From positions 425 through 64,424 of the forward strand of contig CAZFRD010000003.1 in assembly GCA_964521215.1 (NCBI GenBank): a stretch of 64,000 nt of DNA, in the 5' to 3' direction. The stretch comes from an uncultured Pseudomonadales bacterium. Lineage in GTDB: Bacteria > Patescibacteriota > Microgenomatia > UBA1400 > PJMF01. The notes under the pieces were generated by a model that saw nothing but the letters and a program-made list of their open reading frames with translations, was not told the origin of the DNA and searched no databases. A program made the translations under genes and the position numbers. This document shows, piece by piece, positions 1,619 to 55,858 of the stretch (positions are counted from its first letter, which is position 1; every line of letters begins with the position of its first letter).

Positions 1619-2602
1619 CTATACGACCTTTAAACAATTATTCTCCGTTTTTTTCCACCACGTCATTTGTCTTTTTGCATACTGGAATTCGTGAAGGGCC
1701 CAAAGTTGTTGACAGTTTTCTGCAGAAATTTCTCCATTTAGATAACTGCGAATTTCTGGCACGCCAAGCGTTGTTAGTACTGGGGCTGATGCTGGTAATT
1801 TAAGTTTGAGTAGATTTTTTACCTCTTGTATTGCGCCGCTGGCAAACCGTTTTTCTACTCGTTGTTTAATTCGCTTTTCTATTAGCTCCAGCGGCGCTGT
1901 GACTAATTCCACGTGATTATCAACTTGGCTCCACAGCATCGGCGAATTGGTTGATTTAGTCAGTGAGCCACTTCCATGTTTTTTTTGCCAAGTTGCCACC
2001 TCAATAGCACGAAGCAACCTTCGAGAATTCTCTCTGTCCGAATCATTCATCTGCTCCAACCGAGCTGAATCGATCTCTGCTAACCATCGTTGTAAATCCG
2101 CTACCGACATGTTTTCCGCCTTGCGTCTCATAGTTAAGTCTTGAGGAATTTGGGGTGTTACGTCATCAGAAAATAAATGTTTGTGATACAGCCCTGTGCC
2201 TCCTACCAGCATTGGTTGACGATTATTCGACCAGCTCCACTGCATAATTTCTCTTGCAAAGTTGACAAAATGAGCGAGAGACCACTCTGCAGTTGGATCG
2301 ATCATCGAAATTCCAAAGATTCGAATAGAGCCGTCTATATTTGTGAAGTAGTTAGGGTTGCTCTGAGGGGTGTCACACTGAGCATGTCGAAGTGTGACAA
2401 CCTCAAACCCCTCCGGCACATCCGCACCCGTCAAAATCTCCAATCCCTTATACACTTGCCTGGAGTCGGCACTGATCACATCCACCCCCGCCACTTTTTT
2501 CTCTCTCACCAATTGGCCAGCAATCGCCAAAGCTCTATCCGTCTTACCACAGGCGGTGGGACCAACAACAGAAATGCAGTGATTCGCTTGATCAATTTTC
2601 AT
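1619..2602 (-). CDS. miaA: tRNA dimethylallyltransferase
   Basis: N-terminal P-loop VVGPTACGKT and overall MiaA-like sequence. Overlaps the downstream NUDIX gene by 4 nt. Contains an in-frame palindromic repeat copy (see the repeat feature at 2367..2404). Confidence 0.85.
   Translation of the reverse strand: MKIDQANHCISVVGPTACGKTDRALAIAGQLVREKKVAGVDVISADSRQVYKGLEILTGADVPEGFEVVTLRHAQCDTPQSNPNYFTNIDGSIRIFGISMIDPTAEWSLAHFVNFAREIMQWSWSNNRQPMLVGGTGLYHKHLFSDDVTPQIPQDLTMRRKAENMSVADLQRWLAEIDSARLEQMNDSDRENSRRLLRAIEVATWQKKHGSGSLTKSTNSPMLWSQVDNHVELVTAPLELIEKRIKQRVEKRFASGAIQEVKNLLKLKLPASAPVLTTLGVPEIRSYLNGEISAENCQQLWALHEFQYAKRQMTWWKKTENNCLKVV
2367..2404. repeat. palindromic repeat unit, in-frame inside miaA
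   Basis: Sequence ggggtGTCACACTGAGCATGTCGAAGTGTGACaacctc. Perfect 8-bp inverted repeat GTCACACT/AGTGTGAC around an 11-nt loop. Same family as the units at 4681-4810 and 54226-54474. Confidence 0.7.
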
Positions 2603-4665: not shown

Positions 4666-4680
4666 TAACCCAATGTCTGC

Positions 4681-4726
4681 TTCGACACGCTTCGATAAAC
4701 TCAGCGTGACATCAGCATGACATTGG
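4681..4726. repeat. palindromic repeat unit (reverse orientation) plus partial inverse half
   Basis: ttcgacacgcTTCGATAAACTCAGCGTGAC is the reverse complement of GTCACGCTGAGTTTATCGAAGCGTG. It is followed by atcagcatgaca, which is also found at 54291-54306. Confidence 0.6.
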
Positions 4727-4747: not shown

Positions 4748-4810
4748 GGGTTGTCACACTGAGCAGTATCCCTGAGTTCATCGAGGGGTTGTCGAAGTGC
4801 GACAACCCCT
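4748..4810. repeat. palindromic repeat unit with ~27-nt loop insertion
   Basis: gggttGTCACACTGAGC[agtatccctgagttcatcgagggg]TTGTCGAAGTGCGACaacccc. The terminal GGGGTTGTCG/CGACAACCCC is a perfect 10-bp inverted repeat. The element encodes the last 9 codons and the TGA stop of the upstream minus-strand ORF. Confidence 0.65.
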
Positions 4811-52796: not shown

Positions 52797-52873
52797 TGGT
52801 GGACCGAAGGGGGCTCGAACCCCTGACCTCCTGCATGCCATGCAGGCGCTCTAGCCAACTGAGCTACCGGCCC
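52797..52873 (-). tRNA. tRNA-Ala (GGC)
   Basis: Reverse complement reads GGGCCGG-TAGCTCAGTTGGCTAGAGC-G-CCTGC-ATGGCAT-GCAGG-AGGTC-AGGGG-TTCGAGC-CCCCT-TCGGTCC-A-CCA. The G3:U70 wobble is the Ala identity pair. Confidence 0.85.
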
Positions 52874-53120
52874 GTGTTCCAAGACGGATAGTATATCATT
52901 TATCTCGACTGGTTAAACAAGATTTCAATAATAAATTTGTCTATCCGCTTTGTTATACTGATAACCCCTAAGATATAGTCTTCTAATCAACTTAACTGAG
53001 TTAAACCTAGTGGGAGAGAGTAGTTTTACTATCTTTTTTGTTTGATACAGCAATATTTTTTACAAAATTAGCAAATTAGCAGAGTAGGGGAGTGACTGCT
53101 AATTTCACCAATCTAGAGTA

Positions 53121-54059
53121 CTACTTAAAATCTGAGTGAAATTTGTGATGAGCCTGCTTGAGCTGTGGTCTGGTGACGTGCGTGTAAATTTGTGTCGTAC
53201 CAATATCTTTGTGACCCAACATTTCTTGAACATCACGGAGTGAAGCGCCATTACTCAACAAATCCGTGGCAAATGAATGACGAATACCGTGGGGGGAGAC
53301 TCTAATAGGCAAACGGGCTTTACGACAGTAGGTATCCACCAGGCGCTGAACACTCCGTGCCGTCAAGCGCATCTCTTCTCCGTCGGAAAGAATATCTGGT
53401 TGTTTGCCAGAAAAACGAATAAACACCGGGTCCCAATTATCTCGACGAGTGTTCAGCCAACGCTCCAACCAGCTCTTGGCTCGATCACTCAAGAACACCA
53501 CACGTGGACGCCTTCCCTTACCAATCACCCCAAACTCTTGAGAGGTCATGTTGACTTGATCACGATTGAGGTTGACCAACTCACTTACCCGCAAACCAGT
53601 AGAAAACAGCACTTCCAGTAACGCCTTATCTCTCAAGCCCGATTGTGAGGATAAATCTGGTTGTCCGAGCAAGCGCTCGATACTTTCTATTGGCAAGAAC
53701 TTCATTAGACGAGCTTCTGCCTTGGGTAAATCAATTTTTTCTGGCTGAATCACTGGTACGTCGTTTTTTACCAACCATTTCAGCCAGGATCGTAAACCGA
53801 TGACATAGTAACTTTGAGTCCGTTTCGAGAGGGTTTCGCCTTCATCATCTTCATATCTTGCTAGATAAATGCGATACTTTCTAATAACTTCCTTATCTAT
53901 TTGTCTCACATCGTCAATTTCTAGATCTTTTAGCCAAGTACAAAATCGTCGTAAATATAATGAATAATTGCGAATGGTCAGTCGACTCACGTTGCGTTCA
54001 ATTTCTAAATGTTCTAAATATTGGGTTAAAAGTAAAAATGGTTCAGTCGGAAATGCCAT
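53121..54059 (-). CDS. tyrosine-type site-specific recombinase/integrase (XerC/XerD/phage-integrase family)
   Basis: N-terminal SAM-like domain. Catalytic region HGIRHSFATDLL...LGHKDIGTTQIYTHV with R, H-x-x-R and Y. Confidence 0.85.
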   Translation of the reverse strand: MAFPTEPFLLLTQYLEHLEIERNVSRLTIRNYSLYLRRFCTWLKDLEIDDVRQIDKEVIRKYRIYLARYEDDEGETLSKRTQSYYVIGLRSWLKWLVKNDVPVIQPEKIDLPKAEARLMKFLPIESIERLLGQPDLSSQSGLRDKALLEVLFSTGLRVSELVNLNRDQVNMTSQEFGVIGKGRRPRVVFLSDRAKSWLERWLNTRRDNWDPVFIRFSGKQPDILSDGEEMRLTARSVQRLVDTYCRKARLPIRVSPHGIRHSFATDLLSNGASLRDVQEMLGHKDIGTTQIYTHVTRPQLKQAHHKFHSDFK

Positions 54060-54225
54060 GCTTGAATTACTATATCAGAAATCAGCAACCGGCTTCTAGC
54101 AACGGTTAATTTTGTTTTAGCTTGTCTTATCAACTTATTACCGTTCTCTACATGGTGGATAGGTTCTCTATTGCCCCAAAATCGGCTTTTTACTAGTGTG
54201 GATGACCAGTTAATCATTGTATTTT

Positions 54226-54310
54226 GGGTGTCATGCTGAGCCTGTCGAAGCATGAATAGCCAAACTCAGCATGACACCCAAATTCAGAGTGACATCAGCA
54301 TGACACCAGC
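54226..54310. repeat. composite palindromic repeat (unit + inverse half + partial unit)
   Basis: GGGTGTCATGCTGAGCCTGTCGAAGCATGA-atagccaaa-CTCAGCATGACACCC. Outer 15-bp perfect inverted repeat. Followed by agagtgacatcagcatgacacc. Confidence 0.7.
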
Positions 54311-54344
54311 CCAGCCTCTGATTGTATATCTGGTTGTACCTCAA

Positions 54345-54380
54345 GTTGTCACACTGAACCTGTCGAAGTGTGACAACGAG
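54345..54380. repeat. palindromic repeat unit
   Basis: aGTTGTCACACTGAACCTGTCGAAGTGTGACAACgag, a 10-bp perfect inverted repeat. Confidence 0.7.
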
Positions 54381-54440
54381 CATAGAGACAGGCGAGCAAT
54401 GTCTGCCTTAGTGAACTCAAAGTAGCGCCTGGATGAACTA

Positions 54441-54474
54441 AATGTCATGCTGAATTTATCGAAGCAGACATTAC
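54441..54474. repeat. degenerate palindromic repeat unit
   Basis: aaTGTCATGCTGAATTTATCGAAGCAGACAttac. Confidence 0.5.
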
Positions 54475-54806
54475 TAAAGCCAACCATATTTTTTTAGATA
54501 CAATGTCGTAAAAGTAATATTGTGCGACATAATAGATTTGTGAAGATTGACCAATTGTGGTGGGGGAAGTAGTCCCCCTCTAACTTGCTTAAACAAGAAA
54601 TTATTTGTTTGCTTAAATTCATCTCTGATGCTAGTTAAACCCCACCCCAAGGGTACCTTCAAATATCGATAAAAAGATGATCTTCGTATGGTCTCCAGTA
54701 TGGGTTCGGGTTATTTATTCCCGCATCACTACCACACAGCGATTTACACACACAATTTACTCGAGTTATAGTCTTATAATAATTAAGTTTTCCACATTCT
54801 ACTCAG

Positions 54807-54845
54807 TATCAAACTATATCAGTTTACGTATATCAAACTATATCA
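54807..54845. repeat. 15-nt perfect direct repeat x2 (TATCAAACTATATCA)
   Basis: Copies at 54807-54821 and 54831-54845 within the ORF-free AT-rich tract. Confidence 0.6.
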
Positions 54846-55090
54846 ACCTCCCCCGCCCCGCCTGGTTTATTCATTTATCTCCCCTACTTTATTGAAAAAT
54901 AATCATCATTTATTTGTATTTTCAGTTAATTTCGTCTTTTCTGGTTAATATTGCTCATCAAATATAAAACTTGATTTTGCTTTTTTAGATAAATAATTCA
55001 TTTTATTTAATTTAAACCAGATCATAACCACCCACTCTCTCCTACTCCTTTATTTTTAAAAGGATTGATGCATCAATCTAATAGCCCACT

Positions 55091-55858
55091 TTATTTACCT
55101 GGGAAAAGTAATAAGAATAGAATCAGAGAAACCACTGTCACTAGAGAATATTCTCGAATGGTTTTTAAAAATAGTCGACCTTTGAGATAACTTTGAAACA
55201 CACCTAAGCCGATGTACATGACAGACATGATTAGTAGACCGATCGCCCAGACGGCATAGGGAATAAATGAGAGGCCGATCGCCAACTCAAACACAGCCAG
55301 GGTAAGCAGTCCAGTTAAAATCCAGTCTGTCTGGTCGAAAGTATTTCTCAGTTGGACGCTCCAAATAGACATAGCAATCAGAGGCAAGTGAATCATGGCT
55401 ACCAATCCAGCTGCCACGACAAAAGGCAAATTAAGGGTAAAAATCGTATTAGTGACTAAGAACGAAATTAATAAGCTGAAAAACAAAGCAATTGTTTGAG
55501 CGGCATAAAGTAGTTGGATGGTTCTGCCTTTGGCCACGGAGAAGATATTGCCCGTTAGCAAAAGCGCATACATGCCAACCCCAAACAAAACCATGAAAAG
55601 CACTCTTTTGGGCGTACTAGCGGGCAAGACAAAATAAAAACTAGCGATAGCCAGCGCATACAGCGTGGGCAATGGCAAAATAGTGAAATATTCATTTTTT
55701 TGCAAATCTTCTGCCAATGCCCACGCTGACAATCCGTAGGTCAGCAGGCCAAAAGCGAAAAGCGACCAAATTCTCCAACCGGCAGGAATTAGCAACACTC
55801 CAAGTAAGGCAAACCCCAACACTAATGAGGTAATGATAAATTTTTCTCTCCGTCTCAT
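55091..55858 (-). CDS. polytopic membrane protein, hypothetical
   Basis: About 8 hydrophobic segments. Overlaps the yebC-like gene by 4 nt. Confidence 0.45.
   Translation of the reverse strand: MRRREKFIITSLVLGFALLGVLLIPAGWRIWSLFAFGLLTYGLSAWALAEDLQKNEYFTILPLPTLYALAIASFYFVLPASTPKRVLFMVLFGVGMYALLLTGNIFSVAKGRTIQLLYAAQTIALFFSLLISFLVTNTIFTLNLPFVVAAGLVAMIHLPLIAMSIWSVQLRNTFDQTDWILTGLLTLAVFELAIGLSFIPYAVWAIGLLIMSVMYIGLGVFQSYLKGRLFLKTIREYSLVTVVSLILFLLLFPGK

Follow-up and report, generated by a model that had tools for sequence, protein, structure and literature searches.

The hairpin array and the adjacent recombinase gene

The window analyzed here is a stretch of 64,000 nucleotides (nt) of contig CAZFRD010000003.1, from a bacterium of the candidate phyla radiation (CPR), and all coordinates given below are window positions. 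A gene for a tyrosine recombinase of the XerC/D type (xer; 53121..54059, minus strand, 312 amino acids (aa)) is preceded by an array of short hairpin repeats at 54223-54473, which lies in the largest non-coding gap of the window (54060-55090; about 92% of the window is coding). A first-pass annotation of this DNA had correctly placed the start of the recombinase gene at 54059 and had compared the array with the attC sites of an integron or, alternatively, with REP/BIME-like (repetitive extragenic palindromic; bacterial interspersed mosaic element) or MITE-like (miniature inverted-repeat transposable element) families. The evidence described below favors the REP/BIME-like alternative. The array is probably a local cluster of a miniature palindromic DNA element that is REP-like, non-autonomous and ~25-33 nt long, and the recombinase is not part of the repeat system.

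The array consists of three full hairpin units (~27-33 nt, plus strand) together with three truncated ones in the opposite orientation, and the spacing between units is 96-118 nt. Of the at least four copies of a ~27-nt palindrome that had been annotated here, three are full units, while the supposed fourth corresponds to the three truncated minus-strand left arms. Unit C1 (54229-54256, plus strand) has the form TGTCATG-CTGAGCCTGTCGAAG-CATGA, the whole unit being TGTCATGCTGAGCCTGTCGAAGCATGA, and matches a covariance model with 45.6 bits (E = 2.6e-9). Unit C2 (54345-54377, plus strand), which reads GTTGTCACA-CTGAACCTGTCGAAG-TGTGACAAC, has a perfect stem of 11 base pairs (bp) with the arms GTTGTCACACT/AGTGTGACAAC and scores 43.4 bits (E = 9e-9). 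Unit C3 (54441-54472, plus strand; AATGTCATG-CTGAATTTATCGAAG-CAGACATT) is a diverged copy whose right arm is shifted, and scores 29.5 bits (E = 3.5e-5). The truncated left arms, GTCAYNCTGA, are found on the minus strand at 54266-75, 54284-93 and 54295-304, with a tandem pair of them at 54284..54307 (GGTGTCATGCTGA + TGTCACTCTGA).

It was annotated that the stems vary while the loop stays constant. The stem variants ATG/CAT, ACA/TGT and ACG/CGT are indeed present in the window, and the tip CTGAGCYTGTCGAAG is nearly constant; full constancy was a slight overstatement, as C2 has the loop TGAACCTGTCGAA and C3 the loop TGAATTTATCGAA. The units end in GTTGTCA...TGACAAC or GGTGTCA...TGACACC, and the conserved part is the center. 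In addition, C1 is enclosed in a perfect inverted repeat of 18 nt (54223-54240 / 54265-54282) rather than the 15 originally given. The right arm of this repeat (54265-54282) is the inverted, truncated left arm of another unit, and C1 with its 18-nt inverted partner (54223..54282) is a REPIN/BIME-like doublet.

The covariance model was trained on 56 units that share the GTCA-type arm and was then run on the window. It finds six full copies, at 54225, 54343, 54439, 2367, 4679 (minus strand) and 4748, with E values from 3e-9 to 9e-5. A degenerate pattern of the core has 10 matches in the window compared to 1.4 expected, and none of 100 shuffles reaches 10. Folding of the units as single-stranded DNA and as RNA, which had been proposed as a check, gives hairpins in both. 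The z-scores of single units range from about -2 to -4.3 as DNA and from -0.7 to -4.3 as RNA; C2 reaches -4.3 in both forms, and the lone C1 is the weakest (-0.7, RNA). Doublet and nested forms have z-scores of -2.8 to -7.3, and the 66-nt segment of the C1 doublet folds with -20.3 kcal/mol as DNA (z = -7.3) and -32.6 kcal/mol as RNA (z = -6.9). At the gathering threshold, Rfam 15 has no match on the units of the window or of 15 multi-copy loci, and at E<=10 the sole Rfam models that overlap units are miRNA hairpin models, far below threshold. Two contigs of the same genome from other samples are identical to the window, with zero polymorphism.

Hairpin repeats upstream of a tyrosine recombinase gene are what an integron would present, in which case the hairpins would be attC-type folded sites for the adjacent enzyme. 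The enzyme itself argues against this. It scores 245 bits on the XerC model (TIGR02224) and 244 bits on the XerD model (TIGR02225), compared to 102.9 bits on the integron-integrase model (TIGR02249; cutoff 265), which matches only the C-terminal catalytic stretch 232-297. Its best solved relative is E. coli XerD, aligned end to end (11-304 to 6-289), while the integron integrase IntI4 (2a3v) aligns over only 64 C-terminal residues (233-296). Moreover, the units lack the R/L boxes of attC sites (GTTRRRY/RYYYAAC). No cassette open reading frames (ORFs) lie between them, as the first-pass annotation had already recognized; the ORFs found there are 48-75 aa long, overlap the units and are translations of the repeat sequence itself. 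Together with the distribution of the family described in the following sections, these features make an integron very improbable, and a functional tie of the array to the recombinase is not supported.

Copies in miaA and in the miaB-msrQ spacer

Copies of the unit occur at three unlinked sites of the window, at 2.4 kb, 4.7 kb and 54.3 kb, and those at 2.4 and 4.7 kb are nowhere near a recombinase gene, which is a further point against attC-type sites. The first lies inside a coding sequence. A unit at 2370-2400 (plus strand; model match 2367-2403, 43.2 bits) is inserted in frame in miaA (1619-2602, minus strand), where it is antisense to the gene and is translated as VVTLRHAQCDT.

The second site is a 112-nt spacer from a miaB-like to an msrQ-like gene, and it holds two composites, each with a complete unit in the apical loop of another. 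In the composite at 4672-4725 (minus strand; model match 4679-4715) the outer unit ATGTCATGCTGA...TCGAAGCAGACAT has a second, complete unit, TGTCACGCTGAGTTTATCGAAGCGTG, within its apical loop, and the whole folds as a single long coaxial hairpin (z = -4.7 as DNA, -5.0 as RNA). In the composite at 4750-4807 (plus strand) the outer unit is GTTGTCACA-CTGAGC^TTGTCGAAG-TGCGACAAC, and the inner unit in its loop has 24 nt, AGTATCC-CTGAGTTCATCGAGG-GG. The model match to this composite (4748-4808) spans 61 nt with an internal insertion and scores 27.9 bits. A 27-nt double left arm, TGTCATGCTGATGTCACNCTGARTTT, is present both at 4725-4699 and at 54306-54280, and therefore a composite element has been copied as a whole.

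Turnover between relatives

The three sites differ in their content between related genomes. In an alignment of MiaA orthologues the segment derived from the unit is limited to a sub-clade and is absent from P0014-P0054. Orthologues P0014 and P0015 have no trace of the unit and read PEGFAVMA--TQAD, and others have short unrelated linkers. The unit is intact in the window gene and is present in decayed form in the 81-82% identical P0002 and P0003. The genes P0010 and P0013 contain additional nested copies, and the DNA of the latter reads GTCATGCTGAGAA[GTCACCCTGAGTTTATCGAAGGGTA]GTCGAAGTGTGAC on the strand of the element. The linker of P0009 gives a 12.5-bit model match, a weak copy in the same place and in the opposite orientation. 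The short linkers of several closer orthologues may be decayed copies as well.

It was also observed that the unit occupies the variable segment of MiaA in opposite orientations across lineages (2370-2400 in the window; L126:10203-10239; L123:10200-10247), and one lineage also has a second, nested copy. It follows that either the segment is a hotspot that was struck repeatedly, or the loop was inverted within the palindrome. In the same two relatives (L126 and L123), the miaB-msrQ spacer retains only a remnant of the left arm.

The xer locus itself was compared with that of a metagenomic relative whose Xer protein is 95% identical to that of the window over the best segment. The blocks that flank the array are conserved at 74-82% DNA identity, and ~188 unrelated nt replace the 265-nt array; a covariance-model scan of this spacer finds no unit. 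Since the relative keeps the flanks and a similar xer gene without the array, the array is a lineage-specific accretion in a permissive spacer and not a conserved partner of xer. The same comparison counts against an integron, and for this locus a false lead is thereby removed: there is no integron in this CPR genome.

The family across bacteria

An exact search with the 15-nt core CTGAGCCTGTCGAAG returned at least 120 loci in a viral collection and at least 120 in a genome collection. Some exact matches to a 15-mer are expected from chance alone. Among the matches listed, however, at least two complementary bases abut the core in 102 of 134 viral and 121 of 138 genome matches, compared to about 14% expected by chance. 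The genomes, again among the matches listed, represent more than 10 phyla and include Chloroflexota, Alpha-, Beta- and Deltaproteobacteria, Actinomycetota, Bacteroidota, Cyanobacteria, Acidobacteriota, Vulcanimicrobiota, Ignavibacteria, Latescibacterota, Zixibacteria and, within the CPR, Shapirobacteria and Peribacteraceae. On megaplasmids of Comamonas and Sphingobium there are up to 19 copies each, nearly all without an annotated feature.

Covariation was assessed in an ungapped alignment of 135 copies, anchored on the core alone. The pair adjacent to the core (-1:+1) is formed in 131 of the 135 copies (97%; CG 90, GC 31, AU 5, GU 3, UA 1, UG 1) and the next (-2:+2) in 120 (89%; CG 50, UA 37, GC 21, UG 11), so that the first two pairs use 5-6 pair types. 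The third pair (-3:+3) is formed in 82 of 135 copies (GC 39, AU 20, GU 17, others), and pairs farther from the core in ~40-55%. The covariation score is 0.431, compared to 0.217 in shuffles (0 of 500 attain the observed value) and at most 0.214 with slid partners. The sequence of the 5′ flank is conserved (CCGYTCRNS, TGTCAYN or CCTCAYN) while that of the 3′ flank is not, past three bases, and the unit is therefore asymmetric.

The first-pass annotation had concluded from the stem variants that a folded structure is under selection, either as single-stranded DNA or as RNA. It is borne out that the stems vary in a compensatory manner around a conserved tip. Nevertheless, this covariation alone demonstrates neither a functional RNA nor an attC-like substrate, because it is family-wide in many phyla and because sub-families with alternative complementary stems have been described among REPs (PMC3733652).

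The constancy of the core was examined with a scan in which the center was left free (GTCANNCTGAN7GAAGNNTGAC). Most matches with complementary NN have the center GCTTGTC (15 copies) or GCCTGTC (1 copy), and the non-complementary matches are unrelated sequences, some of them recurring. As a free-center scan yields a fixed center, the constant core belongs to the family and not to the query. One hairpin with the same arms and the same CTGAG...CGAAG frame has another center (L259:1680-1706; GTCATC-CTGA-GTGAAGC-GAAG-GATGAC). Other widespread repeats, of the form GTCATTGCGAGCGAAGCGAAGCAATCC, also carry the GAG...CGAA frame, and a larger super-family built on this frame is possible.

Nesting is not confined to the window. 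Seven clear nested cases are known from the window and from unrelated contigs, and in these a unit of 23-25 nt sits between positions 6 and 9 of the host core. In the inserted unit a 5′ arm of 6-8 nt and the core are followed by 1-2 further nt, and in two nested forms (L078, L184) the inner and outer arms are identical. Inverted doublets like that of C1 are present at three further loci (L263, L280, L284). Short tandem arrays of the core were also noted (L136:90-152; L130:6452-6609; L216; L117), and tandem copies have a period of 24 nt in a Synechococcaceae contig (CTGAGCCTGTCGAAGGGCATTCAC x3) and of ~71 nt in Microbacterium mangrovi. Such tandem arrays may be coding repeats or products of local amplification.

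With respect to flanking genes the units appear to be unoriented. Next to co-directional flanking ORFs, 27 units are sense and 29 antisense, and a further 21 lie between convergent and 12 between divergent ORFs; these numbers rely on crude ORF calls. When the ORFs within 3 kb of the copies were clustered across ~290 loci, no transposase or integrase recurred, and the absence of an integrase again disfavors the integron. The genes that do recur are phage-like or GTA-like (gene transfer agent) structural genes, which reflects the viral collection. Many matches in that collection (L004, L008, L039, L088, L092, L099, L110 and others) place the unit between structural genes in GC-rich prophage-like or GTA-like clusters, where the ORFs were judged by appearance to be of capsid, portal and tail type. 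It is possible that such clusters are a vehicle for horizontal spread of the family. Phage records gave no match to a two-unit query.

Literature searches with the exact core (both strands, and as RNA) returned only chance primer matches, and keyword searches did not find the family described. The family thus stands out by its unusually wide distribution and by the unusual constancy of its tip, and no published description of it was found.

Proposed fold and mode of spread

The unit consists of a 5′ tag-plus-arm (TGTCAYR in this genome), the apical module CTGAG-YYTRT-CGAAG and a complementary 3′ arm. With the core numbered C1-U2-G3-A4-G5-(N6-10)-C11-G12-A13-A14-G15, the pairs C1-G15, U2-A14 and G5-C11 could form, and a 5-nt loop would be closed. 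The remaining G3.A13 and A4.G12 would make up a tandem mismatch, which lies in a 5′-YGAR-3′ context on both strands. This context favors sheared G.A pairs in RNA and in DNA alike, and from the sequence of the core we infer a sheared tandem G.A fold. Energy models leave an 11-nt loop in the unit, and the nested composites form one continuous helix in which the module is repeated.

Several features indicate that the family has spread at the level of DNA. These are its presence or absence at the three sites between relatives, the unlinked copies, the composite copied as a whole and the in-frame insertions in coding sequence, as well as the occurrence of both orientations at one site, the lack of a bias in gene orientation and the lack of terminator tails. 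Most plausibly, an enzyme whose gene lies elsewhere in the genome would act in trans on single-stranded hairpins; it could be a HUH/RAYT-like transposase (RAYT, REP-associated tyrosine transposase) or another hairpin-specific nuclease. Mobilization in trans as single-stranded DNA is a tentative part of the REP-like reading, to be held with clearly less confidence than the reading itself.

The nested units are 23-25 nt long and inserted at loop positions 6-9, which points to a preference for the loops that folded copies expose, and the apical loop of another copy may thus be where a unit most readily inserts. Insertion of IS1397 into REP loops, as mentioned in PMC3116915, is a known parallel. 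Units would then persist wherever insertion is tolerated, as in long spacers or in a variable surface loop of MiaA. The position of the array beside xer would be incidental; at most, the array may lie within the xer 5′ leader and could modulate xer.

A number of observations weigh against spread as a REP-like element. No mobilizing enzyme was identified: a tblastn search with 7 RAYT/TIRYT query sequences had no match in the window and all collected loci, 2.5 Mb in total, which is a tiny sample compared to whole genomes. Neither a target-site duplication nor a defined insertion junction was found. There are only ~6-10 copies in 64 kb and fewer in relatives, so that activity may be old. The lack of an orientation bias is weakened by the use of crude ORF calls on GC-rich contigs. 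Finally, REPs are normally lineage-specific, and a 15-nt module that does not change from phylum to phylum is atypical of them. Such constancy would rather be expected of a motif that a universal factor reads, possibly as RNA. The nesting, too, could be structural elaboration of an RNA helix.

An alternative proposal is that the units are a structured RNA motif, in which the apical module (tandem G.A plus pentaloop) binds a widely conserved protein or RNA. The units would then set the stability or translation of transcripts from within regions such as the xer 5′ leader or 3′ untranslated regions, with spread being secondary. Such a role would account for the invariance of the module across phyla, for the strong covariation of the proximal stem with its G-U pairs, and for the helix that stays continuous in nested forms. 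A promoter-like sequence at 54544-54516 (minus strand), in a conserved block, would also place the array in the xer leader, which would be ~460 nt long if this is the xer promoter, and part of the action of REPs is attributed to RNA (PMC3733652). On the other hand, the units are unbiased relative to flanking genes and occur in both orientations inside the array and, between lineages, at the miaA site, where the copy of the window is antisense. Moreover, the orthologous xer leader does without the array, and no Rfam family matches. An RNA motif is therefore an unlikely explanation.

Less likely still is that the units are not mobile at all, and that replication slippage or template switching at quasi-palindromes, together with gene conversion, multiplied them locally, with the core shared by common descent or convergence. 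Truncated and duplicated arms in the clusters, identical inner and outer arms in some nested forms (L078, L184), the absence of target-site duplications and the lack of a transposase in the 2.5 Mb searched by tblastn would all agree with such a process. It does not readily explain unlinked copies at 2.4, 4.7 and 54.3 kb or at up to 19 places on one megaplasmid, an identical 15-mer in more than 10 phyla, or a precise in-frame insertion in a conserved gene (miaA). As to how REP-like units multiply, replication template-switching and an RNA-level role are both live alternatives to single-strand mobilization.

The REP-like reading can be taken further. The units may represent an undescribed pan-bacterial class of ~25-nt mobile hairpins, whose invariant CUGAG-N5-CGAAG tip with a sheared G.A clamp is read by a conserved host factor or a horizontally travelling one, which target apical loops and tolerant coding loops, and which are distinct from GTAG/CGTC REPs and RAYT REPINs. 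This wider claim is speculative, and we consider it doubtful at present. For a REP-like family it is in any case unusual that Patescibacteria, Chloroflexota, Proteobacteria and Actinomycetota have an identical 15-nt tip on stems that covary freely, that copies are nested in one another, and that one is in frame in a tRNA-modification gene. There is also a practical aspect, as the units yield spurious small ORFs (...LRQAQHD..., ...LSLSK...) and assembly breaks, and masking them would improve the annotation of metagenome-assembled genomes.

Other features around xer

Two conserved non-coding blocks lie upstream of xer. The block at 54487-54577 (L299:2364-2456 in a relative) adjoins the array and contains the promoter-like sequence mentioned above, TTCACA-17-AATATT, as well as a palindrome ATGTCG...CGACAT and a GGGGGACTACTTCCCCC hairpin. 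A dif-like site beside a lone xer gene, such as those of XerH and XerS, is conceivable here. The block at 54700-54895 (L299:1995-2185) shows ~81% identity with long identical runs, far above the surrounding DNA. It features a 15-nt direct repeat, TATCAAACTATATCA, at 54807-54821 and 54831-54845 (24-nt spacing), a DnaA-box-like TTTTCCACA on the plus strand just upstream of the direct repeats, a G/C run CCCCCGCCCCGCC and a small minus-strand hairpin GCGGGAATAAATAACCCG. This block has no Rfam match and no GC-skew switch, and could be an unrecognized RNA gene, an iteron or other regulatory region, or a promoter. A replication origin or terminus at the 1-kb gap was rejected, as there is no GC-skew switch. 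No terminator-like site was found in 53900-55200.

On the downstream side of xer there are no repeat units. A hairpin AATTAGCAG...CTGCTAATT (53080-53110) is situated between xer and a gene for tRNA-Ala(GGC) at 52797-52873, which follows xer by 250 nt on the same strand.

Comparison with known systems

Some identities can be dismissed on size or form. The MITE-like alternative of the first-pass annotation fails on both, as the units have 25-33 nt compared to 50-500 nt in MITEs, and their flanks extend the palindrome and contain no direct repeats. By sequence inspection only, a hammerhead ribozyme (CUGANGA...GAAA) was rejected since the units lack G8 and A9 and are single hairpins in topology, and a K-turn or box C′/D′ motif since there is no 3-nt bulge.

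Like attC sites, the units are folded single-strand hairpins with stems conserved by structure rather than by sequence. However, attC sites have conserved R-box ends and a variable center, whereas here the center is conserved and the stems vary, and there is no IntI, cassette or attI.

The in-frame insertion of a palindrome in a housekeeping gene (miaA), at a tolerant surface segment and with the frame kept, resembles the Rickettsia palindromic elements (RPEs). The classical RPE-1 has 100-150 nt; the present unit differs in its length of ~30 nt and in its spread across phyla. The Nostoc small dispersed repeats (SDRs) that Elhai and colleagues described in 2008 are reportedly mobile-looking hairpin repeats of 21-27 nt, inserted in one another and in other repeats. 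No transposase is known for them, and they are not known from outside the cyanobacteria. The units are similar to SDRs in size and nesting.

The generic features of REPs are all present: the units are imperfect palindromes of 20-40 nt, multi-copy and dispersed, with six full and additional truncated copies spread over three unlinked sites. Alternative complementary stems and inverted dimers, which characterize REP sub-families, are found as well. As in the REP/REPIN-RAYT system (PMC3116915), the 20-40-nt imperfect palindromes are multi-copy and lie for the most part outside genes, inverted doublets such as C1 and its partner give longer hairpins on folding, and single-strand mobilization in trans is the inferred route. 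The units differ in that their heads are TGTC, CGTTC or CCTC and not GTAG/GTGG, and in that no RAYT match is present in the 2.5 Mb examined. In addition, REPINs are lineage-specific and vertically inherited (PMC3116915), unlike the core described here, which is common to many phyla.

The closest described kind is the CGTC/TGTC-tagged REP super-family (PMC3733652). In these REPs the CGTC tag is often TGTC or CCTC, the stems have 8-9 bp starting with A-T, the loops 4-5 nt and the tails 3 nt. They form inverted dimers, include intragenic in-frame copies, occur in five phyla and have no associated transposase, and RPE-4 and RPE-6 were classed among them (PMC3733652). The core and its translated peptides are absent from the text and supplements of that study. 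The differences are of several kinds. The tag of CGTC REPs is unpaired, whereas the GTC here pairs with a 3′ GAC in C2 and in the miaA copy; their tail is CCA-like, whereas the tail here is GAC or ACA. A conserved tandem G.A within the stem and an apical 15-nt module invariant across phyla set the present family apart, and clusters and loop-nested copies are common in it. Because of the tandem G.A in the stem, the CGTC survey, which allowed at most one mismatch (PMC3733652), would have filtered out these units.

Likenesses are present as well, and the units may belong to this super-family. Copies in the window begin with TGTC and those in other phyla with CGTTC, CGCTC, TGTC or CCTC. The stem often starts with A-T, and it has 8 positions with a 5-nt loop if it is taken to include the tandem G.A. 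Both have alternative complementary stems, inverted dimers and copies inserted in frame within genes, both occur in several phyla, and both lack a linked transposase. How CGTC REPs spread was left open in PMC3733652, and if one factor reads the tip of the present units, its identification would explain the spread of transposase-less REP families.

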